A stretch of DNA of 64,000 bases from Candidatus Omnitrophota bacterium (GCA_026387175.1 JAPLME010000010.1:62096-126095), one strand, 5' to 3'; positions 39,001 to 61,314 are shown, counted from the stretch's first letter. The notes: generated from the letters alone by a model not told the origin. Program-made: numbers and translations.

Positions 39001-42000
39001 ATGCTTAAAGAGAACCACTGTCTCGACGCGGTAGAAAATATGATGGAAGCGTCGATGAAATTCACCGATGACTCAAGTAAATGCCGTGTTGTCGCGGCGG
39101 CCTCATTAATGCTCGAGGGAGCCATCAATAACGTACAGTCGTTCGACAGGTCAAAGATCGAAGCGTTTGCCGCGACGTTCAAGGAGATATTAAAGAGCTA
39201 TATGCTGACCGTCGGCGGCGCCTCTGACACTGCGGTCAAAGAAGCGGACGCGTTCCTGAATGCCGTATTCGGGCCTACTATAGATCTGGACATACTCAAG
39301 AACGGCTTAGAGAAGATGAACAAAATCCTGACGCCGCTTCTCAAGACGACCACCGCTCTCGACATGATGATAGGCCAGTCTAATTATACGGTAGCCCTGA
39401 CTTACGCGCTTGGCGGCCGTGATGGAATGGAGCTTATGGTAACCGCCAGTTTAAGCGTGCTGCCGGCCGCTTTCCGTGACGCGAGAGGTATCATCGATAC
39501 CTTTAAGGTCGACCAGGTCTCAGACCTCCTTAAATTAAGCCCAGTCGATAAGTCGGCATTAAACGGCTCCCTCGCTGGGAAGGATATTGGGCCCGTAATC
39601 TTTACAACGACGAATGGCACCGATTTTACGCTGGGCGCGCTTACTCCTACCACTGGAGCGGCACCTGCAGCTACCGCCGCCGCTGTCGAAGCTGCTAAGG
39701 CATCCGCCATTTCAAAAGATAACGCCCCCGCCGCATTGGGCCTGTCCGAAAATCGTTTATCTGCGGATGCCAGCAGAGAACTGATGTCTTACGTTTCTGA
39801 TGGTATGAGGAAGGCCGCTGGTCTCACAGGCTCAGAGGATATTTACTTTGTTGCCCGTACATCGGGAGGTAAGACAGACTATGTTGCATATAAGGAGGGA
39901 GACAGTAACTCGCCCTTTACCCTATCGAGAAACGGGGAGGGTGTGTGGTATCTCTCTCATTACGGCGATAATTATTTCTATGGCGGCACATATAAGACCT
40001 CATCCGAGATCAAAGAGATCGGCGAGAAACGCGGGATGATAAATTGTTCCTTCGATCTGACCACCGGCACGCTAAGCGGCCAGCTTCTCAAAGACGGTGT
40101 TACGCATGATGTGAAGATGTTCCTGAGCGGATGGCTCATGGCAGTGGACGGGAAAGCGATAGAGACGATTTCCAACTACAAACTGAACGTCAAGAATGCC
40201 GCCGGTGATACCGTTTCAATGGCCGGCAAAATGGAAGTATGGGGCTATGATGCTAGTGACACTCCGTTTGGCAGGTTCAGCCCATCCGAAGCGATAACTA
40301 TACCATGGGTACAGGAGATACTGTCCAGCGCGAGAAGCGCGGCGGATGCAGTGAAGACGGCCTCAGGTTCTGGAATGCCGGCGCTTCCCCCAGAGCTTAA
40401 GAACATTGGCCTGACCGTAAGCACCGGCGCGGACGGTGTGAATTACATCGAGATGACATCCCAGAGCGCTCTCGTAGTGGTGGGTGGTCAGCTTATGCCG
40501 TTTGCCAACCCGCAGGATGTAGCCATTAAAGCCGGATATACGGAGAAGGACGCTTACGGCAAAACGATCATGGTTTATAGTACGGATGCGATTGTAACAG
40601 GTATCGATGCCCAGGGTAACAGAATGTACGCGTCGGAGTGCTTCTATGAAAAGGAAGTCGCCGGAACGATGGTGCAGTATGTGTACGTTAAGGACATGGT
40701 AGTGACGGAGACCGGCGAGAAGGTGACAGGAGAGTTCTGCCTTGCCGGACAAAGGATAACCCGGGACTGTGCATTCTTCGGCGTTCCAGGCACCTATAAA
40801 TTTAACTTTATATCAGGCAGTGATTTTGAATTTGAAATTAACGGAAGAACGGTGAAGGCCGGCGGCTTCGAACTCGATCACGCTGTCGGACAGAAGATAT
40901 CGATTCCGGGCGCGACTTTAGAAGTAGTCGAAAACGATAACGGTGTTAAGAATATCAAGGTCTATTATACAAATGCGATATCCGCCTCGACATCTACCAG
41001 GGTGGGAGAGCTTACTATCGGACCCCGATCGCTTATCTTCGATGCCGCGAGCCTCGCCGCGGGAGGCCCTAGGGTGATCGCGTACCTTGTTGACGATGTC
41101 GCGATACAGGGCTCGACGCTGCGCGAATGCGTGCTGAAGAATGGCGCCCAGTTGGCGATTGGCATGGACGGGTCCTTCGTAATACAGCAGGGCACGATCG
41201 TCTCGGGATGCGTGGAACGCTTAAATATTAATGGTATGCAGGTCGCCCCAGGCCAGCAGAAGGCCGGAGAGTCGGGCGGAGCCGCTCCAGAACCGGTCAG
41301 GCTCGGTCACGACGCGGAAGGTACGCACATTCTCTTCAAATCCATCTCGGTAGTAAACGGTGATTTCGCGCTTTCATTAGGGCAGGAGATGGTCATTGAC
41401 AGCAGCTTTACGTCCGCTCCCGCGGGTACCACATTCGCTCTCGGTAAAGCTATCCTCACCGCGACCGGTAATAACTGCATCCTTAGCGGCACAGACGGCG
41501 TTACGCAGTTCACTGGACAGCGCATTGATATAGTGAGGAATGATAATGGACAGATAGCATGGGGAATACCAGGCCTCGCGGATTATCTGGCCGGTAGCGA
41601 CGTGAAGATGAGGGATATCTATAAGATGACTCTTAGGGGGGAGTCTATCGGATATGTGGCGACGGTCGAGACGGAAGGGGGGACGGCAAGAGTCAGCTTT
41701 AAGAGTATAGATGAGCTTAGAGCGGCCGCAGCGAATTTCGTGGATAATATGGAGAGGCGCGAGGTCACCCTGACAGATATCCATAATACTCTTAACGGAG
41801 AGAGGAATATCCCCGTTTCGAAATCCGATCTCTTGAGCCTGATGTGGCGCTACAGCGCGGCGAAAGGCAATGCCTTCGACGACTTTATTGACAGGATTGA
41901 AAGCGGCGAGATGAACCGCGCTATCGTAGACGGTATTATCAATTCGGGTGCCGGTCTAGAGAATCCGATCAAATATTCCATCCTCGAAGCCCTTACCATA

Positions 42001-45000
42001 GCGGGAGGACTCGACAAGAAGGTCTTTAATGCTCTCAAAAACAGGATAGAGAGCGCCGACGTAACCACTCAAGATATAGACGGAATACAAAATGGCGCCG
42101 CAGCCATTAACAAGAAGTTATCTGAAAAAGATCAGATTAAGCTCACGGATAAGGAGATACACATCGCGCTGATAACGATGAATGATAAAGAGCTTGCGGA
42201 TATCAGGAATAATATAGGTAATCCGGACATAAACGCCAAGAATATAACCGACACGATCAAAATGATCGATGCTGCGGTAGGAGAAAAGTTCAGCAGTACC
42301 CAGGTCTTCATGATGCTGATGAGGATGAGCGAGACAAAGCTCGATAACTTCATATCGCACATAGGTGATGCGAGGATAAACGCCGAAAATGTAAATGCTT
42401 TGGTTGACAAAGCTCAATCCGCCGCAGGAGTTGATCTTTCTAAGATGCAGGCCTTCATGATGCTGATGACTCTGGACGATAAGAAGCTCGATAACTTCAT
42501 CGCGAACCTGGACAACAAAGCCATAAATAGCGGCAGTATAGGCCTTGTGGTAAAGATGAGCGGGATTATGGGCAAGGGGATATCCAGAGAACAGGCCTTC
42601 TTCATGCTGATGTCGATGAGCCCATCTGCGGTGGGGAGTTATCTCGCTGGGATGAGGGAAAAATATGAGTTCTTGACGAATAACCAGGAAAAGATACAAA
42701 ACTACCAGAAAGCTCTTACTGAAGTAACTGGCAAAAAAGCTACACTGGCCCAGGCAATGCAATACGCTATTAGGGCTGGAGAGAATCCGCGGGACACTGC
42801 ACTTTCAAAATACGGCACTTTAGAAATGATCGGCCAAAAACTTCTTGATCAAGATAAGCTTGAAACAGCCATAACTACGGCGCTTAGTTCCTCATTGATG
42901 TTGGATCCGACGGCCCAGCTTGTGGCTGCGCTGACGGATACCTTAAGCAAAGAGTTAAAATCTCCCGCGCTTGAGCCCGGAGTGGAAAAGGCGTTATATA
43001 CTCTTCGAGCAATGAGGCTAGATGAATATGCCCTTCAGGCAAACGAATCCAATAAGGCACAAACATTATTACCAGGTACGAGAGCGGATGCGGCGCTTCA
43101 GTGGTCGGCGGCTGACGGGAAGTCATTTAATCTTGGAGGAGATGATTTTGGAGCTTTGGTTGATTCGCTCAAATATGTCGGCCAGGTAATACAGCTTGAC
43201 GCCGTAGCATACAAATTCTCAGCAGAGATCCAAACATGCCTGGTGCAGAAATTCGGGACCGACATCAAAAATATTGTATCAGGGATCTCTATTGCTGCTG
43301 TGATGCGAAGTTCCGAGGTGTCTGATGAAAAGATCATCGCCGCGTTTTCCGACCAGGCAGTTCAGGCAGTGCTCTATGGTAGATCCGCCGAGATGAGCAT
43401 AGTGACGGATGCGACCGGTACTTACCTGAAAGCCGTGCTCGATTGTTCAGCGAAGCCGATTACGTCAATGGTGAACGGCAAAGAGCTCCTATTCTCGAGC
43501 ATGCTGAGCCCTGACGGGATGACTTCTACGCCATTCTTATCGTTGCGGCTCCTTGGGAACGGCAGCTGGCAGACGCTCAATAGCATGGCCGCCGTTACTA
43601 ATGAAGCGCTTAATTCGGCTGATAAATCGACAGGCATATATACCCTTAATAAAAATGCTGTTATCCGTCTCAATGCCGATGGTGGCATGAATATCGCGAA
43701 TGGCGTGCTTACCCTCGAAGGCAGCGCATATATAAATGCGTCTGTCGAAATGGGTGGTATTGCAGTGGCGAAAGGTCTCCCCGGTAAAGGCGGGGCTGGT
43801 GAAGTGCAGACGATCCATGTTACCGGTGATGGTATTCTATATAATGGCACTATCACTATTTCCGATGACAGGGCGGTGATAACCGAGAAACAGGTCTTTC
43901 TGTTAGACAGCGGCGCTTCCCTTACCGTTCATAATGGTGACATCACAAAAGAATATAAAGTCGATATCTGTATGGTCAATGGCGATTTGCAGCGTTTAGA
44001 CTGGGCGGTTCATGGTGTGACCGCTAAACAGGAGATAGCAAAATTCCTAAACAATCTCCTTGCTGGCGCTCTCGAGATAAGGATGGGCACAGATGCTATA
44101 CGTAGCGGCCTGGGAGATAATGCACCCATAGATTCAAAAGCCATTGAAGCTCTCGCAAAAGGAATCGCGAATAATGATATCGGATACAAGGAGGCATTGG
44201 AAAAGATTTCCGAATGGGGCAAGGTCTTCAAGGTAACGGAATTTGGTACTGCCGCCGATGGCTTCGCGGGTTTAGTCACGGATAGCGGCGCAAGCTACGA
44301 TCTTGTCAAAGAATTTAATGCCAGATGCGTCGATATATCGGCTATGTTCGGGGTAAAAAATGCGGAGACCCTAAGAACGGATATGAGAAAGATGCTTGTT
44401 GAAGGAATCGCTTTGGCGGAAAAAGCCGTGGCCGCAGAAAAGTATAAACCTCTCTCTACCGATGATTCTGAAAGATCCCTGACGACTTATCGAGGCGCTC
44501 TTGCAAGACTTGATAGTGGTGCGCCGTTATCAGAAGTGATGGATATAGTGCGCTATGTCTATCATTCTTCGCTATTCGGCGGAGTAAGCCGGGTAAGCGT
44601 CGAAGATGAGCTTGGTATCGCAAAAGTGGGTATGAGTACGGATGGAGTTCTCGATATGGCAAGGAGTTATGAAAGAGCTATGATCGGTGGTGACCTTGTT
44701 GGGGCTTTTGCCATCCTGTCGAGCGAAAAATACAATGCGGCAGTGCAGGCGGTAACGCTATTGGGTGATGAGATAGGTCAGGATACTGCGCGCCGTATCG
44801 CTTTCGGGGACGATAAGAGTGCCAAGATGCCCACGATAGATCAGCTTACGAATGCGATCATGTTAGGCGGAGAGAATGCCCTTCTCGCGAAAACAAAGGT
44901 GGAGGAGATAAGAAGTAATAATGAGCTCTGGGCAGAGTCGAGATCCACGTGGTGGTATCAGGCATCGAGCGCCCTGATGGGCAAGCAATATGAAAAAGCG

Positions 45001-48000
45001 GATAGCTGGGATATCGCGAAGGGTGCGGCGAAAGGAAGCCTGGCTATAATTGCTGCTACGACCATTTTGGTCCTTTCAGGCGGTACTGCTAGCGTTGCGC
45101 TTGGGACGTTTGGTAATTTCATGCTGGGTGCGGCTTATGTAGGCGCTGGGGCCATGGCACTGAACCTTGGCGCATATACTGCATACGGGATGATTACGGG
45201 GCGTGATCTTTATACAGGACAGCAGGCTTCAGCGTGGGGCGCGATCGGCGGAGCCATTGGTGGTCTTGGCGAGGGATTTGCATTTGCTCTCGCGTTCCAA
45301 GGCGCTGGTGCGCTTCTGGGCAATTTCAGCAAAATCGCATCAGCTGCTGAAACTGGATGGAAAGCATATGCTGTGCAGGGAGTTACCTCCGGCTTGATGG
45401 GTGGCGTTATTAACGTCGGAAGAGAATGGCTTACTAGTGGAAATGACTACTCAATATTCAGTAAGGAAGCGGCTCGAGACTTTGCCATAGGATTCGGGTT
45501 AGGCGCGATCGGTGGATACCTCGGAGCTTGGGGCGTTAATTTCGTGAACTTAGGAGGGGCTGCCCATACAACTATCCAGACGTTGGTTACAGTGGTTAGT
45601 ATGGGCATTGTAAGTGCCATAGGTGGTCTTATCAATAGAGCTTACTTCGGAAGCCAGGGCTGGAAGAGCGGCCTCGGTAACTGGAATACCTTATTAGATT
45701 TTGGCTTTGGGGCGAGTATCGCCGCTGGATTAAAGCTTGCCAGTGCAGGGCCAGCAGGCGCTTCAAGATTTATAAATTTTGCCGGAGTTAATGGCGGTTT
45801 CTGGGGAAGCATGAATGGCGCTATCGCAAGGACGCTTATGGTGACCACATCCTCGATTGCGATAAGCATTTTCCACTACCGTGACAAGATTTGGGTAGGT
45901 GAAGATAACGTTTTCAACTCCTCCAACTTCCTGCTTGCGGCAGCGAATGGCCTTATTACGGGCCTATTCATCTCATATATCTTAAGTCCGCGCGGCATTG
46001 GCCATTTGGCAGGCAAGGAAATCGGTGGTGTTAAAGATGGCGTGGCCCAGAAGATCATCAAAATTACAGATACTACCAGCGCAAATATCACGTGGTGGCC
46101 TGGAAAGACACTACCCATTAATTTCCCTGGTGCAGGTCTTCTTGCGGAAGGCATCAGAGGCGCCATGGTATTCACATTTATTAGTCCAATGTTCTATACC
46201 TTTAATACGCTTGTGTGGAATCCATTGATCAAGGGTGAAAAGACGGGCTGGAGTTGGGAGCAGTTTGCGGCAAGCATACCGCAAGGATGGATCTCAGGGT
46301 TCTATCTACAGCCTCTGATCAGTATATTTACCATAGAGCTTACCCGTCCCGAAGGCTTTGGGCAAGTCTTTACGCAGAGTGGTCTTATAGGCAAGGCGAT
46401 GGCGATAGGAGAATATGCGGTATCATGGATGAGGGGAAAGGCATTTGCTGCTACCGAAGATACTCTATGGATGAGAGGTATTGCTGCTCTGGGCGGGCGT
46501 GTAGGTGCCGGTATAGTCGCGCTTGATCAGTATGCGTGGATATCCGGTTTTGTCACGGGAATAGATGCCGCGCTGGATCTTGTATCGGGTCAACGACTCA
46601 ATCCTCTCACCGGCAAGCCTGAGTCCACGGGACACATCGGTTTCTCGCTAGCCTCCAGAGAGATTCTCTCGTGGGCCGCGCTATTTATACTGCCGATGGT
46701 TAAATATACGGTAGAGGCACAAATAAATATCGCTCTCAGGAGCCTTGACAGGAGCGTGAAGGTTTCTTCCGCAGAGAAGGCAGAGTTCTACAGCTTTGTT
46801 GCCGGTATACGGGAACTGCAGGGAAAGGAGCAGGTGAAAATATTAGAAAGCCTTGCTAAATACGGAGAGACAACTTTCAAGGATCATGCAGGCAGGTTTG
46901 TTTCATATTATCTTAAAGAAGGCATGACTCCTCTTGCTACGAACGAGCTCATAAGGATGGGATATGGTGAAAGGAATTTTGAATTCCTGAGAGATCTCTG
47001 TTTGAGTGACGTGACTAAGCCTGACCAGAATATCAAAATCGAAGGTGTTGACATTAGTATCGATAAGTATATGTCCGGGATAGGGGACTCCCTCTTTATA
47101 ACAGCTATCGCGAATTCTGGTATTAATCTGAGAGATCTATGTCTATCGATCGATCCAGGTAAGATGGAGACGCTTGGTACTGTATTGGACAGGATGCAAG
47201 ACGTGCCGGCTGTTTCCGAAGCCCTCAAGGACGTTACGCTGAGAATGGATGCCCAGATGGCATTAGCAAAACTTGCGGGCCTCGAGACCGCATTTGCGGT
47301 AAACGCGCAACGCAGAGAGGAATATGTAATTAAGTATAATGAAGCGGTGCGTGAGTCAGGGTTAAAGCTGAGCGATGGTGAATTTACCAATGAGCAATTT
47401 GATGGTAGAGCTGTTGAGCAGAACCTTAGGGAGAGAATAAAGTTTGCCCAAGATGCTCAGGCGCGAGGAGAGAAAGTTGATGGGGCTGAGCTTATGAAGA
47501 TGAAAGATCTCCTGACAAGGCTGGATGTTATGAGAGGAGAATATGAGAATATAACCTTCGTTGTCATTGGCAAGGAGAATATTGCCAATTTCAGAGAAAA
47601 GAATATGATCGTCGAAGAAGCGTCGAGCGGTAAAGGCAATATGGACTATATACTCCTCGAAGGCGCTATCGAGAATCTTATCAGATTCAATCAGGATGAT
47701 ATCATGAAGCCGCAGAAGGAAGAGACGGAGACGAATAGAGGCTTTGCTAAAAATTGGGAGAATTTCACTATTCTGATTAAGGACGGACTCAAGGGTGGTT
47801 GGGGTAAGATGATGGAATATTTCACGGAAAAGAAGTTTACCGAGGCTAATGTTATCGAGGTCTTTGGCGGCAAGTTGTCAGGTGATTTCATCGAGCAAAA
47901 AGGTAGAGAGCTTACTGGTGGGCAATTGGTGAATGGAAAAATCGTTGGCGGGAAATCAGATGCCGATGTTAATGGTAAGAATGCTATAAAAGGTGATGCT

Positions 48001-51000
48001 GCGCGCATTATCATGAAGGATGCCCTTGGAAGGCTTCAACAGCAGATGGAGATACTGAGAAGCGCAGGTGACACCAAGTCAGAAAACTATAAGGACCTTA
48101 ATTGCATGACTAGAACGCTCAAAGAGTGGATTGAGTGCAGTGAAATTATGGGCGATGGATTTGCCTTACAGCCATCTCAGTTGGCATATACCTATCTTAT
48201 GGCTCGTTCAAAATTAGCTCAGATGGAAGGGAAGAATATAGGCCTTCCGACGTTTGTAGCAAGGGTCGGTGCAGGAAAGATGGACGGAAATATCATTGGT
48301 TGTTTTATCGCTCTGGGCATGTATAAAGAGGCGACCGGTAAGGGCGCGAAGATGGTAATCATTGTCGATGCATCCAGGACGGATCTTGTTAGTCAGAATA
48401 TTACAGTTGCTGACAGCATGAAACTTGTCCTAAAACTCGCTGGCAGGGGAAGCTACGAAGATCTTGCAGTATATAAGGTGGCTTCCAATGAAGGCGCAGG
48501 CGGCAATGTGCTGGCGCATCAGGCGACCTTAGGTAAGGATACTGCCGGGAAAGATGTGGTAATTATTTCGGAGGATGGCATAACTGATAAGAGCAAGATT
48601 TCTGAACAGGCTATGTTTTTCGCGACGACAAGGGATATCCAGGAACAGATTGCGCGAAGTAGAGATGGCCAGTCAAGCCTCATGACCGAAGGTTTTCTCG
48701 ATAGTCTGCATATAGATGAGATCCAGAATACGATTGCGGCAAATGACCTCATTAAGAGCGCGGGACACGATCTCTATAAGAGGTTGCAGGTGCTTTCGCC
48801 TGACCTTGCGGCCAAAATAGAGTATCGTTCGAAACTCATTGACAGTATGGTCAGATATGTCGCAGGAGTTCTCGATGTAGAAGGTGACTCGTGGGACGCG
48901 GATGTATTGAGACAGGCAGGGCTTATTGAAAGTGTCAAGGGTGCCGCCAGAAGGACATTTACACTCAATGAGGCCTTGACCGGGAAATTAGAGAATATGG
49001 TAAAAAGTGACTCACTATTCAGCGCATATATTAATGAAAAAGGTGAGCTCAGTTCAAGTTTCCATGATTTTATCAGAGAAGTGGTGACATCCTGTCTCAT
49101 GAATGACAGAGAATATTATAAAGACGATATGCGGCAGGCTTATGTGATGACTGATGGGGATAGTGGAATGCCTATGCCTAATACAATATTCGGTGATAAT
49201 CTTAGGGCTGCCTGCGTGGCGGCTAAACATGGCTGGGGGATTGAAAAGATAGCGGATTCATTGTTACAGCACTCTTACATGAATGTTTCGACCGCTGATG
49301 TGATAAAGGCGTTTGGTGCATGGAATACCACGGGAGGCACTGGTACTGCTGAAGGCACAAGAAAGACTATAGAGAATATCAATGATAAAGCGCCAGGCCA
49401 TCTTGCCAAAGCCACCACAGAGACGCCGCTCATCAATAATTACCATTTACTGAGAAATGGTGAGGATGCGACTAGAAATGAAGGAGCTGTCCAGGTAGGT
49501 GAGAGCATTAAACGAGGTACCGATGCAATAGCTATTACAAGTGAATCGAGGAACGTTTGCTATGACATGTATGGCCGCGTGAAAGACGCGTACAAAAATA
49601 TGCCTGTCTATATTCTGATCAGAGGAGAGACAGATGGCGGTCTTACTTGCAGAATGGCGGATGGTAGTTATATGACGTTCAATGATGCCGTTAAAGATAT
49701 AAAGACCAGATTTAATGACGGCGAAAAGATGGTCGTTATTATTCAGGGTCTCTCGACAGGAAGTAACATATTCGGGCTGAGGGAAGGGGTCTCGAGAAAA
49801 GCGGACGTTATAAAACTTGGGCTTACCAGTTACGACAACCTGCGCCAGATAAGCGGTAGAATTAACGATGAAGGCGGAAAGCGTGCCCAAGGAGGGAATT
49901 TCATCCAGATAGTGAATATGTTTGACAGAGATATTAAGGATTCCGAAAAAGCGCTTTTGAGCGATCTCGCCGAAAGCAAGGACCCCGTTGACCAGGAATA
50001 CCTTAAGCTAGCCATTATAGCTATCCAGTCGGAAATTAACATGGAGATCGATGAGAGCAGGCTACAGCAGTTCATGGAGAAGTCTGGTAATTCGCGGGCA
50101 AATATAGCTGAGAAGATGGCTGATATCAGGAGGAGCTCGGAAGGAATGCTGACATTGCAGGATGTGGTATCGAAGAGCATACCGGTCACAGTGGCCGGTA
50201 TAGGAATGATCCAGGGCATATCTCCAAGCGGTAGTAATGCATTGACAAATATGATGGTCGATATGACAGAGTCGGGAGGTGTAGATCTGGTCTTCAGGAA
50301 CAGGAACATAAACGGCGCTTACGATGATATTGTCATCGATGCGGTAACCGGCAAGGTTGATTCGAATACGCGGCTTACTTATGATGGTGCGGTCTTTGTG
50401 AAGAACGTGATTGCCGCCAATAATCTCTTAAGTGCCGCCGCGGATGCCCGTCAAGCGATTGCATTTGCCCTAAAGGATGCGGGGGTAATGACAGATGGTA
50501 TTACGACAGCTTTGGGTAATTATATAGAAGTAGAAAAAGGCGGTTCCACTGGTGTTAATATAGATGCAACGTTAGGGCTTGTAAAGGAACTGCGTACAAA
50601 TGGAATCTATGACGGCATTATGCCCATCAGCGTTCTGATAAATAACCTGGTTGCAATCGGAAACTTCTGGGGCGGTATCAAAGCTATTTCTAACACAGGG
50701 CATACTATGACGAAGGATGAGATAACTTCGATGGTAAAATCTAGTGATATCAGGCAATCTTTTGTGGATTATTGTGGGCGGATCGGTATAGAGACAGTAT
50801 TGATTAATGTCCTTAAGAATAATATAAAGGCAGAGAGAAATTTGCGTTTTATTGAAGAAAATTTGGCGACCGCTATCAAAATTTACGGACCGCAATCGCG
50901 CGAGGTCAAGAGCTTGCAGACCCAGGTTGAAAAAGCCCAGAGTAGCCTTAACATGTACACGATCTCGGTCAGGGAGTTCTTAAAGAATCAGGATCAATAC

Positions 51001-54000
51001 GGTCTTTCGGCAATCAAGCTCTTCGTTAGCAATTCCATTACCGATGAGGAGATGAAGGTGCTTACGCAGATGGCCGAGAACCTTGAGGCGCGTAACCCCG
51101 GAATCATTGCTCAGGTCTCGATGATCGACCTCTACAATATGATGAAGTCGAACGGCACGGTCGAGTCTCTCGAGAAGTCTAAGGCGAAAGCTCCTGTGAT
51201 ACCGGAGCTTAATGCGCGTAAGTACGTAACAGTTATGCTTCCGAAGCTTGGATCGAAGACGTTCGCCATGAGCCTGGAAAGCGCCTATAACCTTATTACA
51301 GGTAAGAGTGTCGCGGGCATGGGCGTCACCGCGGTGATCAGTGTTGCAGTCGCAGGACTAGCGATCGGTGGAATAGTGATGCCCGCGATCATCATTATGA
51401 GCCTCAAAACTATTATTACCGCGGCGGCCGAAGCGGCTAATTACCATTATAGCCTAAAAGTTGCCGAGGGCGGCGCGATTATGATGAAGACCGCCGGCAT
51501 ATTCATCCGGGAAGTAATGCAAGGCGCTATATCAACGTCACTTTACGTATTGATGCTCGGATCAGGTTTCAACTCGCTCGGCGGCTTGGTGTTCGGTGGA
51601 TACAGCCTGGTGAGCGCGGCTCTCTCGTCCGTGAAACAGTCGCTCGGCGAACTTACTTCTTCGCCTATCATCAATGCGATCCTCAATACACTCTTTGTGA
51701 AAGAGCCGGTGGCAAAGACTGCAGTGACATCGAAGGCACAAAAAGCGTCGAATATTGTGCGTGACCTAAAGAAGGCAGATAAGCTTGATTGGAAGAATAT
51801 TATGGACAAGGCGGGCGTTGATAATGAACTTTTACTTCAGATAGTTATCCTTCTGGCGCCAGCGGCGGTTGCCAGGGATGTCGAACGCATGGCAGCTGTT
51901 GACAGTATTCTTCCGAACGCGGTAGACCAGGCACAGGATGTGAGGAATGGCATAAGCGTTTCCGCAGTACTTGCGTCGCTCGCAGCCTATGCTTCAGACC
52001 GAGATGCGGCAGCATCCCTTATCGTCCCATCCATCCTTAAAGGCATAAAATCGGTGAACGCCACGAGCATTCAGCAAGTTGCCGATACCTTAGTAATCGA
52101 CTTCGGTATTGATAAGGCTCAAGCAAAACTTATCGCATACCGGTCCCTCAATTCGAACTACAGTGAATCCGATATTTACAAAATTGAAAATGCCTGGAAA
52201 GGGAAATTTAAGTTCTACGCAGAGAAGACCGGTATACCCGAAGATGTATTCGCAAAGGCCTTTGGTACCGGTGATATGTCGATCGAGAAGATTGAAGCGT
52301 TTATCAGTATTCAGGGCTCTCTCTCCGGGGTTGCTCCGGAAAATATGGGCTTAAGCCGCTTTATGCAGCTTGCCGAAAGTAACGGTATACGAGGTCCTCC
52401 TGAGTTGATAAAACTTGCGATATTCCTTGGTATCCAGCTTCCATTAGAAGTAAAATCCGCAGTAGAGACGGGCAAGATGCTTTCCGCTGATGCCAGAAAT
52501 CTCACGCCGGTGCAAAACGCTATTAGTGCATTAAAACTGAAAGAGAAGTTCGCCGCCATAGAATCTCTGAAAAAGGCGTTCGATGAAGTTGATAAAGGCT
52601 GCGAAACGACGCTTGCCGAAAAGATCTCATTTAATAAAGCGATGGAGATTGCGTTATCGGATGATCCTGCCGCGGCATTTCGTAAGTACATATCTGACAA
52701 AACAGACGGTAACATTAATGATCTTATTAACGCGAGCCTCGCTATGGTCAGTCGAGGCGATATCACTGATCAGAATATAGGGCCGCTCGTTGATCTTGCC
52801 GCAGGTATGCAGGTAGCGGGCCCCATGTCCGCAGACCTTGTCAAAAAGCTTAATATGAATAAATTGGAACGGGATATAAATACCATAGCGTTCCTTGCAG
52901 ATCCTTTTAGGAAAGATATTCCGGTGTCGGCCTTCTCCTTGAGCGGGTATTTGGCCATTGTTTGTTACAACGATGCTAATAGGTGGCTGGATATGGCTAA
53001 AGATCTGTCGAGTCCAATCTTACCTGAAGATAGGAAAGCTTACGCCAAAGAGGCTCTGGTGACATTTGAAATTGCCAGGATAGTTTACGAAAAGCCTGCT
53101 CTTGGGCAGATAACCGAATCAGAAAAACAGATTCAAGATCTTGAGAAGATGGGCCAGAATAATCCCGAATACATCGAACACATAAAGAGCGCAATCGCGC
53201 GTTTACGCGATAGGATCAAGGAGCGCCGGACAGAGGCCGACTCTGGTGTTGAGTTTATATTGTCGCCCACGTTACAAGCGCGCTTGGTGGCTGATCAGCC
53301 GGCGCTGACGGATAGCATTGCAAAAGTGTTTCAAGCTAGGGATGGCAGGCTGTATATAGCCGACTTAGCCAGCATTGCCTTAGAAAGCGTTATTCCCGGA
53401 GCGATGGTAACTCCCGTTGTGATAAAAGGGTTATCAGAGGAGAAGCGGAAAGAATTTGAAAAAGCGTTTGTTGACGCAAGTTTAATATGGAATCCCGAAG
53501 TGGATACGGCGCAGCTTACCATCCGCAGAGATAATTATCTGGCGGCGCTCGAATGGGTTGATATTGCAAAGGATTATGCTAAAGAGAAAGACTTTAGCTC
53601 GGCGCTTGGTGCCCTGAACGAAGGGATCTTGCAGAGTCGCTCCGATGTGCTCGGGAATGACAGCGTAAGCGGCTTAACGAAAGAATGGACGATGCAGTCC
53701 TTGTTACAAGATAAAGAAAAGCGAATAGCGAGCGCTAAGGTATTGAGCGATATGGCCACAGAATTTGCGGGCATTGGCGATTACATCATGGCCGTAGAGG
53801 CGCTTGAACAGGCGGCGGCATTGGATGCCAGGATAGTCGCTAACGCTGATTGGCAGAAGATGGCCAAGGAACAGGATGCGAATAACTGGATAGCTATTGC
53901 TATTGAATATGCCTCTAGTGGCAAAGATAAGTATGCCAGGGCGGCCCTGAAAGAGGCGAAAGATATACTCGGAAGCCGTGCGGCTGAGGTTATTGTCGCG

Positions 54001-56304: not shown

Positions 56305-57081
56305 ATGCATCCATTCCTATTCCAAGGCACGCCTTACGAGACGCCGAGCTGGGATGTTATTTTATTTGCCGGATTTTTTATCGCCTTGACAATAGCGCTT
56401 ATTGTAAAACCCAAAGATTTTCCGGTTACGCGCCGCGGTATCATAGCTTTCACCTTCATTACCTTATTTACCGGTTCACTCGGGGCCAAGCTTCTCTATA
56501 TCTTCCTTCACCGCGAAGAGCTATTCGGCGCTATGCACTTGTCATTCAGTGACGCCTTCCTATCATCCGGATATGCCTTTTTAGGTACCCTTGTCGCTGA
56601 GCTCATTACGATGTGGGCATTTACAAAGATCAGATTAAAACCGATCAGTTTTCTTGTCTTTGCGGACTTCTTAATGCCATTTCTTCTGTTACAGCAGGCG
56701 TTTACCCGCATTGGCTGTTTTTTAAACGGCTGTTGTTATGGCCCGGTAACAAACCTGCCATGGGGATGCGTTTTTGTGGATGAAACGGTCAAACGTCATC
56801 CCACGCAGATATATTTCGCCATAGCCCTCGTGATAATATTCTTTTATACGAGACATCTCTATAAAATGAAGCTGCCCAAAGGCATAGTTTTCTTCACAAC
56901 GCTCTTTACCTACGGCCTTTTCAGGTGTATACTTGAGTCATGGAGGGTCGATAGTCCTCATATCCTGGGGCCTGTCACGCTCGCGCAGGTCACGACATTT
57001 ACGCTCGCCGTTATCAGCGGCGCCTGTTTATATGCGATCATGGTACGAAACGGTCTTATAAAATCAAGGAGGAAGGGATGA
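56305..57081 (+). CDS. lgt: Prolipoprotein diacylglyceryl transferase (Lgt), 258 aa from ATG 56305. The ORF track extends it to a TTG at 56254.
   Basis: Polytopic membrane protein. It has the RIGCFLNGCCYG...WG motif (compare E. coli RLGNFINGELWGR) and HPTQIYFAIALVIIF (compare E. coli HPSQLYE). The N-terminal W..GFF region aligns with the E. coli WYGLMYLVGF region. Confidence 0.8.
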   Translation: MHPFLFQGTPYETPSWDVILFAGFFIALTIALIVKPKDFPVTRRGIIAFTFITLFTGSLGAKLLYIFLHREELFGAMHLSFSDAFLSSGYAFLGTLVAELITMWAFTKIRLKPISFLVFADFLMPFLLLQQAFTRIGCFLNGCCYGPVTNLPWGCVFVDETVKRHPTQIYFAIALVIIFFYTRHLYKMKLPKGIVFFTTLFTYGLFRCILESWRVDSPHILGPVTLAQVTTFTLAVISGACLYAIMVRNGLIKSRRKG

Positions 57082-57725
57082 AGAAATACGCATTCGTTGT
57101 AGCGGTGGTATTTATATGCACAAATGCCTATGCGATCGATTTTCCATGGTCCAAGCCGCCCCAGAAAAAAGATGCCGCTGCGGATACGGCTAAGCCGGCA
57201 GCTCCGGCAAAAGCGGTTGTTGCTAAGCCGGTTGTTCCTGCGGCTCCTGTAAAAGCAGTTGCTGCCGCGCCGGTTCAGCCGGCAAAGGCCGCTGTTGTGG
57301 CTCCCGCAGCCCCGGCGAATGCGACCCAGCCCGCTCCGGTAGTAGCGCCCCAGAAAAAACTCACCAAGGAGGAGATGATAACCCGCATTACTGAGGTGCT
57401 GAAGAGTCGTCCGAACCTGGTCTCCGTTGTCCAGGGGCTTGTGGCGACGCCAGGAGAGGACGGCGTTACAATCTATACATATAATGGTAAAAAGTTGGCG
57501 GATCTCGATGAGGATACGCTCTTCAAGATCCTCTCCCAAATAAATCAGCAGATTTCGCTGGATAATCTTCAGAAACTAGAACGCCAGCAGAGACAACTCA
57601 AGAATCTTCAGCAGATAGACCAAATAAATAAGACTCAGCGTATGCTGCAACAACAGCAGGCGCTTTCAAAGCCCGCGGCGCCTAAGGTCTATACGCCCCC
57701 TAAGGTACCCAGGACACACTATTAA
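57078..57725 (+). CDS. Secreted hypothetical protein: signal peptide, Ala/Pro/Val-rich low-complexity linker, and a C-terminal Gln-rich coiled-coil domain
   Basis: The ATG overlaps the lgt stop (ATGA at 57078-57081), indicating translational coupling. A strong AGGAGG Shine-Dalgarno sequence lies about 8 nt upstream. The N-terminus MKKYAFVVAVVFICTNAYA is a typical signal peptide. The linker is repeats of PA(A/V)PAKAVVAKP. Confidence 0.7.
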   Translation: MKKYAFVVAVVFICTNAYAIDFPWSKPPQKKDAAADTAKPAAPAKAVVAKPVVPAAPVKAVAAAPVQPAKAAVVAPAAPANATQPAPVVAPQKKLTKEEMITRITEVLKSRPNLVSVVQGLVATPGEDGVTIYTYNGKKLADLDEDTLFKILSQINQQISLDNLQKLERQQRQLKNLQQIDQINKTQRMLQQQQALSKPAAPKVYTPPKVPRTHY

Positions 57726-57743
57726 AAAGTAATAGTCTCCATC

Positions 57744-57769
57744 GTAGCCGACATTTAAATGTCGGCTAC
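57744..57769 (+). terminator. Perfect 11-bp stem with 4-nt loop, a plus-strand terminator candidate (no T-run)
   Basis: GTAGCCGACAT-TTAA-ATGTCGGCTAC sits 19 nt after the stop of the 57078-57725 CDS. Confidence 0.45.
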
Positions 57770-57810
57770 GACATTGATGGTACACTTCATTAAGAATAGA
57801 TAATAACTCG

Positions 57811-57844
57811 AAAAAAAGAAGCCCGGCAGGATATGCCGGGCTTC
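57811..57844 (-). terminator. Rho-independent terminator of the cold-shock gene (minus strand)
   Basis: GAAGCCCGGCA-GGATA-TGCCGGGCTTC is an 11-bp stem. On the plus strand it is preceded by seven A (a U-run on the minus-strand RNA). It lies immediately 3' of the csp stop at 57862. Confidence 0.75.
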
Positions 57845-57861
57845 TTCATCCTAAGTCATTG

Positions 57862-58062
57862 CTATAGTTTTACTACGTTTGCCGCCTGTTCGCCTTTAGG
57901 GCCCTGAGTAACATCGAACTCTACATCCTGGCCTTCTTTTAAAGATTTAAAGCCATCCCCCTGGATAACGCTGTGATGCACGAATACATCCTTACCGTTT
58001 TCCGGCGTGATGAAACCGTATCCCTTAGCGTCGTTGAACCATTTTACTTTACCTTTTACCAT
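57862..58062 (-). CDS. cspA: Cold-shock protein, CspA family (66 aa)
   Basis: [16 protein letters not shown] (RNP1) and VFVHHSVI (RNP2-like) are present. An AGGAGG Shine-Dalgarno sequence (58072-58077 on the minus strand) lies 9 nt upstream of the ATG. Confidence 0.95.
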
Positions 58063-58184
58063 TATTCACTACCTCCTTCCGGTGGAATTAATAGTAAATA
58101 ATGGCATTATATGAGGCCCTATTTACTACCGGGCGCATTTTACCATTTTCCTTAGATGCCGGCCAGCACTTTTTTAAAAAACTC

Positions 58185-58214
58185 TTGATATAATGCCCCT
58201 TAAGAGGCTATAAT
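58185..58214 (+). promoter_or_regulatory. Candidate sigma70 promoter for the patatin operon (TTGATA, 18-nt spacer, TATAAT)
   Basis: TTGATA at 58185-58190 and TATAAT at 58209-58214. The ATG of the first patatin gene is at 58230. Confidence 0.4.
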
Positions 58215-58229
58215 CTGGTTGATAAACAT

Positions 58230-59465
58230 ATGATAAAGATATCCCGCATAAAAATACCGCTGGCAATATTATTGATATCGGCATTTATTCTCTCCGGATG
58301 CTCGGAAGGAAGGCGTGCCGTTCCTCAGGCCCTTGCCGATAAAGCGGAAGTTCCGGGAATGCCCGGAGTCCGCTCCAATTGTGATTCTACTAACCCTTTA
58401 ATGGAAAAGAGCCTTCTCGAATCATTTAAATACGAATATCCCACCTATTTCCCGTCAGACGCTGATGGAGTGAAAACATACTCTTCGCTCGCCATATCCG
58501 GAGGCGCCGATAATGGCGCTTATGGCGCCGGAGTATTAAAGGGCTGGTCGGAAGCAGGTTCCCGGCCCGTCTTTAAAGTTGTCACGGGGGTCAGCACCGG
58601 GGCACTCATTGCCCCCTATGCTTTCTTAGGCAGTGAATACGATAAAGAAGTAGAGACTCTATTTACGAATATATCCACTGATGACATAGTAAAACGTAAA
58701 GGCTTCTTAAGCGGGGTCTTCGGAAACTCACTCACAAGCTCGGAACCTCTGGCAAGACTGATATCGGCCTCTGTGAACGATCGTCTATTGAGCGACATTG
58801 CCCGTGAATATGGCCGCGGCAGGCGCCTCTTTGTCGGCACGGTGAATCTGGATGCCTGCAAGCTGATCATATGGGATATGGGAGCGATCGCGGTGCTGGC
58901 ATCGCGCGGAAATCTTCAGGCCAGGGAACTCTTTAAGAAAGTGCTGCTTGCCTCAGCGTCTATACCCGTCACATTTTCCCCGGTACTGATAGACGTGGAA
59001 GCGGACGGGAAGATGTATAAGGAGATGCATGTCGACGGCGGCACGCTCTCCCAGGTCTTCTTTATATACGGCCTGGCGCATAACCTGCGGAAAATGGCCG
59101 GGAAGGCCGGTGTAGATATCTCCAAGGTAAAGGCGAAACTTTACGTGATCCGTAATGGCAAAGTAACACCCGGATATAAGGAGATGAAGAGCTGGCTGGG
59201 CGCGATAGCTGAAAGGTCCATCGATGCCATGACCGGAGCGCAGACTGTAGGCGATATCTACAGGCTATATGCCATCTCCGTGGAAAAGGGCAATGATTTC
59301 AACCTCGCGTATATACCGGACAATTATGTTTCGGGCAAGAAGGAATTTTTTGATAAGTACGAAATGCGCCGGCTCTTCGAGCGCGGTTATCAGGACGCCC
59401 TTAAAGGGTATTCCTGGCATAAAACCCCTCCGGGATGGGAGAAGACATTGGCCGGGGAAGAATGA
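58230..59465 (+). CDS. Patatin-like phospholipase, predicted lipoprotein (411 aa)
   Basis: Lipobox ILSGC after an N-terminal hydrophobic region. Gly-rich oxyanion motif SGGADNGAYGAG. Nucleophile elbow GVSTG (GxSxG). Catalytic Asp in HVDGGT. Confidence 0.85.
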   Translation: MIKISRIKIPLAILLISAFILSGCSEGRRAVPQALADKAEVPGMPGVRSNCDSTNPLMEKSLLESFKYEYPTYFPSDADGVKTYSSLAISGGADNGAYGAGVLKGWSEAGSRPVFKVVTGVSTGALIAPYAFLGSEYDKEVETLFTNISTDDIVKRKGFLSGVFGNSLTSSEPLARLISASVNDRLLSDIAREYGRGRRLFVGTVNLDACKLIIWDMGAIAVLASRGNLQARELFKKVLLASASIPVTFSPVLIDVEADGKMYKEMHVDGGTLSQVFFIYGLAHNLRKMAGKAGVDISKVKAKLYVIRNGKVTPGYKEMKSWLGAIAERSIDAMTGAQTVGDIYRLYAISVEKGNDFNLAYIPDNYVSGKKEFFDKYEMRRLFERGYQDALKGYSWHKTPPGWEKTLAGEE

Positions 59466-59475
59466 AAGGGTGAGG

Positions 59476-59742
59476 ATGATGCGTAAAATATGGGCAATTT
59501 TATTAATGATCGCGGGTATGGCCGTTTCGGCGTTTTCGGTAGCCTTGATGAACGATTTTATCATGTTGGCCCGGCCCATCATCTTAATGGGCTCTAAGCT
59601 TCGGCCGAATAACACCGTTGTCGAAAGCGCCGTTGCGATGGCCCTTATAATGTTAATTTTTATGGTGGGCTTGGCGCTTATCGTCATAGCCGGTGTAAAT
59701 ATAATAAAATCATTTTATAAACAGGGAGGGAGACCTTCATGA
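59476..59742 (+). CDS. Small two-helix membrane protein (88 aa), translationally coupled between the two patatin genes
   Basis: A GGTGAGG Shine-Dalgarno sequence then ATGATG at 59476. Two hydrophobic helices (AILLMIAGMAVSAFSVAL, AMALIMLIFMVGLALIVIAGV). Its stop overlaps the ATG of the next gene (ATGA at 59739-59742). The ORF track extends the frame back to 59269, inside patatin 1, which is unlikely to be real. Confidence 0.55.
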   Translation: MMRKIWAILLMIAGMAVSAFSVALMNDFIMLARPIILMGSKLRPNNTVVESAVAMALIMLIFMVGLALIVIAGVNIIKSFYKQGGRPS

Positions 59743-60956
59743 GGCGCATATTGAGATTCAGGCTTTTTGTTTTTCTGTTAATACTTTGCATGTCCGCGGT
59801 TATTTCAGGATGCGCCACGACACGCCATCCGGTGCCGCTTAATCTGGTTGATAAGGCCCGTATCGGAAATATGGACGATATACGGGCCGTAGTAGGAGAA
59901 TCCAATACCAAACTGCAGGAGAATCTGGTGCAATCGGTCAAAGAGGAGCGCCCCGAAGACTTTCCGATAGGGCAGGATGGCATAAAAGTGTATCCCGTCC
60001 TTGCCATATCCGGCGGCGGGGCTAATGGCGCATACGGAGCGGGCCTTTTGAAAGGGTGGTCGGCGGAAGGTTCCAGGCCGGTATTTAAGGTGATTACAGG
60101 CGTCAGCACGGGAGCGTTAATAGCTCCATACGCGTTCCTTGGCAGTAAATATGATGCCGATCTCGAAAAGCTTTACACGACGATGTCGACCAAAGATGTG
60201 ATGTCGTCGAAGGGCCCCTTCGGGGCTCTTTTCGGAAATTCGCTGGCCAATAATCGTCCTCTCGACAAAAAGATAGCGGGAATATTAAACCAGGACCTGT
60301 TGGATAAGATAGCCACTGAACACAAACATGGCCGCAGGCTATTAGTCGGCACCGTTAATCTTGACGCCCAGCGCTTTGTGATATGGGATATGGGCGCCAT
60401 CGCCGCCAGAGGCGACGCCGATCTATTTCGCAGGGTGATCATTGCCTCCGCCGCGATACCGGTGGTATTCCCTCCCTCGATCTTTCATGTCAAAGTCGAC
60501 GGTAAGCCTTACGACGAGATGCACGTTGACGGCGGGACCCTGACGCAGGTCTTCACCACCTACAAGCTTCTCGAGGGCATGCAGGGGGCCGCTAAAAACC
60601 TGGGTATCGATCCGTCGAAGGTAAAGGCGAAACTCTACATATTACGTAACGGTTATATGTCGCCAAACTATAAGAAAGTGGAAGACAGCCTCCCGTCGCT
60701 TGCCGACAGGTGTTTCGATACGATAATCAATGCACAGGGGATCGGCGACGTATACAGGATATACGTATTTATGAAACAGCGAGGGAGCGATTACAATCTC
60801 GCGTTCATACCGCCCGATTTTAAGCAGGAGTCTAAAGAGATGTTCGACCCCCAGGATATGAAGCGGCTCTTCGACAGGGGGTATCAGGACGCCGTCAAAG
60901 GATACAACTGGAGCAAGTGCCCGCCCGGGTTGACGGAGAAAGAGCCGGTCCAATAA
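59739..60956 (+). CDS. Patatin-like phospholipase, predicted lipoprotein (405 aa); paralog of the 58230 gene
   Basis: Lipobox VISGC, motifs SGGGANGAYGAG, GVSTG and HVDGGT. About 55-60% identical to patatin 1 by eye. A GGGAGGG Shine-Dalgarno sequence lies about 10 nt upstream. Confidence 0.85.
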   Translation: MRRILRFRLFVFLLILCMSAVISGCATTRHPVPLNLVDKARIGNMDDIRAVVGESNTKLQENLVQSVKEERPEDFPIGQDGIKVYPVLAISGGGANGAYGAGLLKGWSAEGSRPVFKVITGVSTGALIAPYAFLGSKYDADLEKLYTTMSTKDVMSSKGPFGALFGNSLANNRPLDKKIAGILNQDLLDKIATEHKHGRRLLVGTVNLDAQRFVIWDMGAIAARGDADLFRRVIIASAAIPVVFPPSIFHVKVDGKPYDEMHVDGGTLTQVFTTYKLLEGMQGAAKNLGIDPSKVKAKLYILRNGYMSPNYKKVEDSLPSLADRCFDTIINAQGIGDVYRIYVFMKQRGSDYNLAFIPPDFKQESKEMFDPQDMKRLFDRGYQDAVKGYNWSKCPPGLTEKEPVQ

Positions 60957-61038: not shown

Positions 61039-61314
61039 ATGTATATGAAAGAAGAGCGTATAGTGGCTGAGACGATAGTGCTGAAGGTAGGCGACGCGAT
61101 CGGGTATCATAGTAACGATAAAGCGGTGATTGAGAAGATAAGGGTGATATCCACCGGTAAGTTTATCGAACAGGTCAAGTATGACGGTGAGAACGATGAT
61201 ATTGTGCTGACTTTAAGGGACGGTGCGGGCATTTGTAGCCTCTGGCTTAAAGATAATCCTGTACGTATATTGGAAGAGAAAAAAGAGAAGGGCAGAGCAC
61301 TCCGCAAAAAATAG
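61039..61314 (+). CDS. Hypothetical small protein (91 aa)
   Basis: ORF with a promoter-like region upstream and no recognisable motif. Weak Shine-Dalgarno sequence. Confidence 0.4.
   Translation: MYMKEERIVAETIVLKVGDAIGYHSNDKAVIEKIRVISTGKFIEQVKYDGENDDIVLTLRDGAGICSLWLKDNPVRILEEKKEKGRALRKK

Follow-up and report, generated by a model that had tools for sequence, protein, structure and literature searches.

Patatin-like lipoproteins paired with a two-helix membrane protein downstream of a giant gene in a Candidatus Omnitrophota bacterium

The window analyzed here is a stretch of 64,000 nucleotides from a Candidatus Omnitrophota bacterium (GCA_026387175.1 JAPLME010000010.1:62096-126095), described from its given strand. 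It contains a giant open reading frame (ORF) and, at positions 56,305 to 60,956 immediately downstream, an Lgt-family gene, a gene for a predicted secreted protein and an operon with two patatin-like genes on either side of a very small gene. This arrangement raises the question whether the patatins belong functionally to the giant gene. A reading made earlier from the DNA alone (the sequence-only reading) had proposed that membrane-anchored phospholipases beside a giant surface protein form a membrane-remodelling or membrane-attack module, for example for feeding on or attaching to another cell. Here we report that the neighbourhood of giant gene and lgt is not conserved around related patatins, and that the two patatins are probably ordinary enzymes of envelope lipids and not part of an attack module with the giant protein. 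The genes on which this turns are the following.

13..56244, plus strand, giant ORF of 18,743 aa (ORF call)
58230..59465, plus strand, patatin-1, 411 aa, predicted lipoprotein patatin-like acyl hydrolase of the pat1 type (PF01734, E 9.4e-19)
59476..59742, plus strand, two-helix membrane protein of 88 aa (hydrophobicity, AlphaFold model, homologues 3' of pat1-type genes)
59739..60956, plus strand, patatin-2, 405 aa, predicted lipoprotein patatin-like acyl hydrolase of the widespread pat2 type (PF01734, E 3.6e-21)

Ninety-three loci with relatives of the patatins were fetched with up to 10 kb of flanking DNA per side; they comprise 82 distinct family loci, designated below by L and a number. The ORFs of all fetched loci were searched with every protein of the window, and the giant protein was searched by tblastn. 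No homologue of the giant protein was found in any of the 93 loci (whole protein, E <= 1e-5), and lgt occurs within 10 kb in a single one of the 82, L058, where it lies 6 kb downstream of the patatin. Loss of this gene order in relatives, which the sequence-only reading had named as the outcome that would speak against its module, is what these loci show. ORFs of at least 1,500 aa stand beside the patatin in two loci only. The large neighbour in L019 has 1,521 aa and carries Ig, PKD and CARDB domains. The one in L090 was considered as a conserved giant and rejected; it is an autotransporter with PATR repeats, at least 2,232 aa long and without similarity to the giant of the window. In the same locus (2-7693) this autotransporter and a protein of 307 aa containing the serine-hydrolase motif GYSGG are encoded ahead of a pat1-type patatin, which makes L090 a second and unrelated instance of a large surface protein beside this family.

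The region on the other side of the patatins is better kept. Synteny from the patatin to a downstream hydrogenase-4 subunit B-like gene (hyfB) is retained in three Omnitrophota relatives, with hyfB 2.4-4.2 kb further on and HyfB identities to the window of 71% (L043), 63% (L044) and 60% (L030). Upstream of the patatin, L030 and L044 carry an efflux operon of the order TetR, outer-membrane factor (OMF), HlyD, major facilitator superfamily (MFS) transporter, and L043 carries unclassified ORFs; giant gene and lgt are absent from the upstream 10 kb of all three. Two published surveys of the flanks of Omnitrophota giant genes list type II and type IV secretion and pilus genes, pilZ, genes for solute-binding and sugar transport, and glycoside hydrolases, and neither mentions patatin, lipase or lipoprotein genes or lgt. 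The last 1,000 aa of the giant protein have no match in 5.8 billion proteins at E <= 1e-5, its last 500 aa no relative in metagenome contigs of the Joint Genome Institute (JGI), and its last 5,000 aa (41242-56241) no Pfam family at E <= 0.001, so that the C-terminal quarter looks like an orphan.

Within the window, the patatin genes are also set apart from the giant gene by the features that lie between them.

56305..57081, plus strand, Lgt-family gene, 258 aa (Pfam LGT, E 6.7e-37)
57078..57725, plus strand, predicted secreted protein of 215 aa with a Pro/Ala-rich linker (ORF; signal peptide by reading only)
57742-57771 and 57816-57846, two 13-bp stem-loops, probably terminators (predicted fold)
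57862..58062, minus strand, CspA/CspE-like cold-shock gene (csp), 66 aa (PF00313, E 1.2e-30; NCBIfam CspE model, 112.6 bits)
58185..58214, plus strand, sigma-70-like promoter candidate of the patatin operon, TTGATA-18-TATAAT (consensus match only)
61039-61314, ORF of 91 aa between patatin-2 and the gene of an ArsR-family regulator, which is followed by hyfB

All genes named in the sequence-only reading were recovered where it had placed them, by ORF calls and Pfam; its list had omitted the cold-shock gene on the opposite strand. The lgt gene starts 61 nt past the stop codon of the giant ORF, and an ATGA overlap couples the ATG of the 215-aa gene to the lgt stop. The hairpin stretch between the convergent secreted-protein and csp genes has a predicted folding energy of -55 kcal/mol and a z-score of -8.4, a value equalled by none of 200 shuffled sequences. 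The promoter-like site at 58185-58214 agrees with the consensus in 11 of 12 positions, is joint best in the region and ends 15 nt 5' of the patatin-1 ATG; a second such site, with 10 of 12 matches, lies just 5' of lgt. Because of the hairpins, the convergent csp gene and a promoter-like site of their own, the patatin genes would form a transcription unit apart from giant gene, lgt and secreted-protein gene. L044 has a csp gene, 94% identical to that of the window and encoded on the opposite strand, 8 kb upstream of its patatin; L086/L090 and L091 likewise have csp genes close to pat1-type genes.

The three genes of the patatin operon are closely spaced. Overlapping stop and start codons had been noted for the small gene; they are present only between the small gene and patatin-2, whose ATG (59739) overlaps the TGA of the small gene (59740-59742) as ATGA at 59739-59742, whereas the patatin-1 stop ends at 59465 and the small gene begins 10 nt on, at 59476. 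Products of 411, 88 and 405 aa were likewise obtained by an independent gene caller from short public contigs of the same organism. At NCBI, patatin-1 is identical to a 'patatin-like phospholipase family protein' of a Candidatus Omnitrophica metagenome-assembled genome, and the small protein is 'hypothetical protein NTY76_05760'.

Patatin-1 and patatin-2 are paralogues that share 52% identity over 397 residues (E 4e-142) and score 68.8 and 76.7 bits with PF01734, well above the cut-off of 27.7. The catalytic residues whose loss would have spoken against active enzymes are kept: Ser122 (GVSTG) and Asp269 (HVDGG) are invariant in 32 of 32 aligned sequences, as are Gly23, Cys24 and the SGG of the oxyanion loop. 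Among the 89 family members from the fetched loci the serine motif TG[VI]S[TS]G is present in 88 and the aspartate motif H.DG[GS] in 85. The lipoboxes claimed for both paralogues are likewise borne out. They read ILSGC in patatin-1 and VISGC in patatin-2, at the end of signal peptides with a basic n-region and a hydrophobic core (MIKISRIKIPLAILLISAFILSG/C and MRRILRFRLFVFLLILCMSAVISG/C), and a hydrophobic uncharged stretch followed by [GAS]-C occurs in 88 of 89 members. A stricter lipobox pattern scored 62 of 89, its misses being valid variants such as CSGC, ICGC and LQGC. The residue after the lipobox cysteine is Ala, Ser or Gly and never Asp in the members scored. Judged from these motifs, the patatin pair is predicted to consist of lipid-anchored envelope enzymes with a Ser-Asp dyad.

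The AlphaFold model of patatin-1 (predicted local distance difference test, pLDDT, 82.7; predicted TM-score, pTM, 0.85) shows a single patatin fold that fills the whole chain of about 400 aa, with no barrel or other domain. Its top Foldseek match is the potato patatin Pat17 (E 1.7e-11, TM-score 0.52-0.60), and the top 24 fold matches in the PDB are all patatin-fold or cytosolic phospholipase A2 (cPLA2)-type proteins. With Pat17 (PF01734; PDB 1OXW, 4PKB) the window patatins share the Pfam match, the dyad of GxSxG serine and DG[GA] aspartate, and the fold over about 370 columns; unlike Pat17 they have an N-terminal lipoprotein signal, about 60 extra N-terminal residues and an oxyanion loop of the form SGG[GA][AD]NG, and identity is only about 15%. 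A single-sequence search of the PDB with patatin-1 gave only engineered single-chain interferon-gamma (1FYH, 1EKU; residues 74-116, 58449-58577; phmmer E 1.6e-5 over ADNGxxxxGxLKxW), a match taken as chance, and the profile search reached patatin structures.

PlpD of Pseudomonas aeruginosa, a patatin joined to an Omp85 barrel, is alike as a patatin fold held at the outer membrane (5FYA, E 6.9e-9, target-normalised TM-score 0.66), but its sequence similarity is marginal (profile E 0.03). The window patatins, at 405-411 aa, have neither the C-terminal POTRA domain nor the 16-strand Omp85 barrel that define type Vd proteins such as PlpD and FplA, and their anchoring would be through the N-terminal lipid instead.

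The patatin family is very large. Significant relatives number at least 7,927 (7,927 of 8,000 scored candidates), and they are encoded in at least 539 stretches of GTDB species representatives (539 of the first 600 pattern matches). Hosts belong to the Omnitrophota, Planctomycetota, Verrucomicrobiota, Desulfobacterota, Acidobacteriota and Pseudomonadota, the last including Lysobacter, Azospirillum, Accumulibacter and Photobacterium. Lysobacter, Azospirillum and Photobacterium are cultured, and the family extends beyond host-dependent bacteria. The closest relatives of patatin-1, here called pat1-type, are 58-82% identical to it and have two 3-residue insertions in common (AVLAS..., 6 residues in total). 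In a neighbour-joining tree they form a monophyletic clade apart from patatin-2, which clusters with single-copy genes from other Omnitrophota. A further multiple-copy arrangement was seen in L011 (8584-18924), where three family members lie within 10 kb, two of them in tandem and the third 6.5 kb further downstream; no small two-helix gene is present there, and response-regulator genes lie between the copies.

The gene between the two patatins encodes a tiny two-helix membrane protein, as the sequence-only reading had it. NCBI and the gene caller agree on 88 aa, with hydrophobic segments at residues 5-27 and 48-78 approximately, and AlphaFold predicts a helical hairpin (H2-37, H45-83; pLDDT 76) with basic termini. 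The turn of the hairpin bears a conserved motif, ARxxLMMGSxxQP, which in the model points away from the charged termini; the positive-inside rule would place this turn on the periplasmic side. A homologue of the small protein stands directly 3' of the pat1-type gene in all six distinct loci where the context of such a gene could be read (the window, L085, L086/L090, L088, L091 and L093), separated by 2-10 nt or overlapping, and a pat2-type gene follows in four of the six (the window, L085, L088 and L093). This recurrence implies that the three-gene order and the patatin duplication predate the split of these lineages. The small-protein family has no Pfam model and is narrow, with about 22 clusters in 5.8 billion proteins, a count that includes a few false relatives since its profile contained an unrelated 111-aa ORF of L087. 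The profile was rebuilt without that ORF. In 1.84 billion proteins the family has 21 representatives, about 19 of them small (76-97 aa).

Which role the patatins may have was judged from the recurrent neighbours of their orthologues, clustered without bias and annotated by Pfam across the 82 loci. Efflux components, namely OMF, membrane fusion protein (MFP)/HlyD, resistance-nodulation-division (RND) or MFS parts, occur within 5 kb in 28 of the 82 loci. This count is 28 and not 32 with the ATP-binding cassette (ABC) cluster left out, which mixes efflux ATPases with ABC-F proteins (its L043 member is an ABC-F protein). Two orders recur, OMF-MFP-RND-HDGYP-patatin and TetR-OMF-HlyD-MFS-patatin, the latter in part followed by LpxD. 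In 13 loci the patatin comes after the last gene of the efflux operon with a gap of 0-63 nt; loci with a patatin at the end of an efflux operon (at about 10,000-11,200) include L021, L022, L027, L030, L035, L037, L044, L047, L048, L056, L058 and others. To our knowledge, no functional connection of such efflux pumps with a patatin has been described. An acyltransferase of the PlsC type (PF01553) is near the patatin in 7 loci and directly downstream in L012 (3541-4284), L015, L022 and L085 (10706-11431), and LpxD lies downstream of the patatin in 4 loci. The adjacency of patatin and PlsC suggests paired deacylation and reacylation.

Since the neighbours of the orthologues are acyltransferases of the PlsC and LpxD (lipid A) types and efflux pumps with TetR regulators, turnover or remodelling of the cell's own envelope lipids with disposal of the products is the explanation we prefer. 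We infer it from motifs, fold, orthologue neighbours and precedents, and hold it with moderate confidence, at about even odds. Two transcription units would be involved. The first would couple a divergent Lgt-family gene translationally to the secreted Pro/Ala-rich protein and be expressed by read-through from the giant gene or from its own promoter-like site. The second would be the separately transcribed operon of patatin-1, the 88-aa two-helix protein of the inner membrane, and patatin-2. Both patatins would be exported by Sec, lipidated on the invariant cysteine and tethered in the cell envelope, where the Ser-Asp dyad would strip acyl chains from glycerophospholipids or lysophospholipids. 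PlsC-type enzymes would reacylate the products, and efflux would remove released fatty acids or lysolipids. The two-helix protein may act from the periplasmic side as a partner of the divergent paralogue, holding or restraining it, and the adjacency to the giant gene would be a lineage-specific accident of gene order.

There are precedents for such a role in Pseudomonas aeruginosa. PlpD has its patatin domain in the periplasm, and membrane lipids change when PlpD is lost (PMC11116518). A proposed bacterial Lands cycle involves PlaF, a phospholipase A that is bound to the membrane and inhibited by fatty acids (PMC9132575). PlaF, a phospholipase A1, would be alike only in the model preferred here, as a membrane-tethered enzyme deacylating the cell's own glycerophospholipids; its anchor is one transmembrane helix in the cytoplasmic membrane and not a lipid, and it is absent from the sequence and structure matches and may be taken as an analogy, not as a relative.

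Several observations weigh against envelope-lipid turnover. Canonical GGxR/KG motifs have Arg or Lys at the oxyanion position; of the 78 members scored, 63 have Asn there, 7 have Asp and 3 have a basic residue. Most of the efflux and PlsC associations are drawn from Omnitrophota genomes that are related and are not independent events, so that the neighbour counts, drawn from phylogenetically related loci, overstate the number of such events. No efflux or PlsC gene is present in the roughly 3 kb visible downstream in the window. As no relative of the giant gene was found, its linkage to the patatins could be judged from the patatin side and from the published surveys only. Finally, in L085 (1747-7209) a glycerol kinase (FGGY), two GlpA/B-like FAD dehydrogenases, a DUF1667 protein and a channel of the major intrinsic protein (MIP) family are encoded directly upstream of an operon of pat1-type gene, small gene, pat2-type gene and PlsC. 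This glycerol cluster fits nutritional lipid catabolism as well as it fits remodelling, and hints that in that organism phospholipid breakdown is coupled to the use of glycerol.

The L085 cluster leads to the best surviving alternative, the lipid foraging or prey attack of the sequence-only reading, in which patatins on the outer surface would hydrolyze phospholipids of a partner cell for fatty acids and glycerol, with the giant protein perhaps aiding adhesion. The host, an Omnitrophota bacterium with an ORF of 18,743 aa, suits this idea, as predatory or host-dependent lifestyles and surface roles of giant proteins have been proposed in the literature. The autotransporter and the GYSGG protein before the pat1-type gene of L090 are also in its favour. 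In Escherichia coli a residue other than Asp after the lipobox cysteine directs a lipoprotein to the outer membrane, and under this sorting rule the family members would be targeted there. Vibrio cholerae VolA is a surface lipoprotein lysophospholipase that acts on exogenous lysophospholipids and frees their fatty acids for uptake; it is not known to be a patatin, and may serve as a functional analogue for foraging only. Foraging is nevertheless unlikely. The giant gene and lgt do not accompany the patatins in other genomes and patatins are not listed in the giant-gene flank surveys, hairpins and an opposite-strand gene part the two units, many free-living Proteobacteria and Planctomycetota encode family members, and what recurs beside the patatins is efflux pumps and envelope acyltransferases rather than adhesins or secretion systems. 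Of the module first proposed, a membrane-remodelling role agrees with the PlsC- and LpxD-type acyltransferase and efflux neighbours, and the functional tie to the giant protein and lgt is not supported by the gene order of relatives.

The strict pairing of the small gene with the pat1-type gene, in six of six loci and at such close spacing, would also suit a toxin and its protector. The pat1-type enzyme would then be self-damaging or antibacterial, the two-helix protein an inhibitor, immunity factor or escort, and patatin-2 a housekeeping copy. The narrowness of the small-protein family and the conserved ARxxLMMGSxxQP loop would suit such a function, but genes for secretion systems, Rhs, VgrG or polymorphic toxins were not seen in the window or the related loci, contact-dependent phospholipase toxins are not known to be delivered as lipoproteins, and the pat1-type sequences, at 58-82% identity, are not hypervariable. 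We consider this quite improbable. Very doubtful, too, is that the three genes are an undescribed envelope module of one Omnitrophota clade in which the small protein gates the divergent enzyme and lipids are harvested or remodelled at contact with a host cell, the adjacent giant surface protein cooperating in this genome. A nucleotide-activated phospholipase that kills the infected cell, like CapV and CapE of the cyclic-oligonucleotide-based antiphage signalling systems (CBASS), is effectively refuted, for although both are structural neighbours through the common patatin fold (Foldseek E 2e-10 to 1e-8; CapE is the best PDB profile match, E 1.6e-7 over the N-terminal 77 residues) and weak matches exist (NCBIfam 24-31 bits; PADLOC phospholipase effector E 5e-12 to 2e-16), the NCBIfam scores are far under the 200-bit cut-off, the similarity is what any patatin-fold protein shows, the window patatins carry an export signal and lipobox where CBASS effectors are cytoplasmic and cyclase-adjacent, and Pfam, NCBIfam and PADLOC show neither a cyclase nor another defence gene next to the patatins in the window.

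If the preferred envelope-lipid reading is true, little changes: two more lipoprotein patatin-like hydrolases are added, and the giant gene gains no accessory module. That the patatins are patatins is already annotated at NCBI, and their family is very large. New, and minor, are the strictly paired and unannotated two-helix family, the old patatin duplication in one Omnitrophota clade, and the recurrent efflux, PlsC and LpxD context in the phylum. The pairing of the small family with one patatin subclade offers a handle on how a periplasmic phospholipase may be restrained, and the position at the end of efflux operons together with PlsC and LpxD adjacency suggests a testable link between deacylation, reacylation and export of envelope phospholipids. 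The Omnitrophota have one cultured representative only, V. archaeovorus.

The remaining genes touch the question less directly. The 91-aa ORF at 61039-61314 has no Pfam, NCBIfam or credible PADLOC match, and the one other place where it was seen is a contig of the same organism (L001). The Lgt-family protein scores 127.5 bits with Pfam LGT against a cut-off of 24.9 and covers model positions 4-238 of 240, but remains below the NCBIfam equivalog cut-offs (104 vs 334 bits and 76 vs 118.9 bits). In an alignment to E. coli Lgt (5azb) it retains R143, G154, HPxQxY, Y235, R239 and E243, whereas N146 and E151 are both replaced by Cys, with RIGCFLNGCCYG corresponding to GRLGNFINGELWG of E. coli, and H103 by Leu; the residues compared are those reported as essential in the E. 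coli enzyme. The gene may encode a divergent Lgt subtype. A scan of metagenome contigs with the window Lgt returned no close relative. Its position about 1.1 kb upstream of two presumptive substrates is unremarkable, because lipoproteins are numerous in diderm bacteria and the adjacency is not conserved. The 215-aa protein has no Pfam or PADLOC family match; its N-terminus, MKKYAFVVAVVFICTNAYA/ID, reads as a type I signal peptide and is followed by the Pro/Ala-rich stretch.

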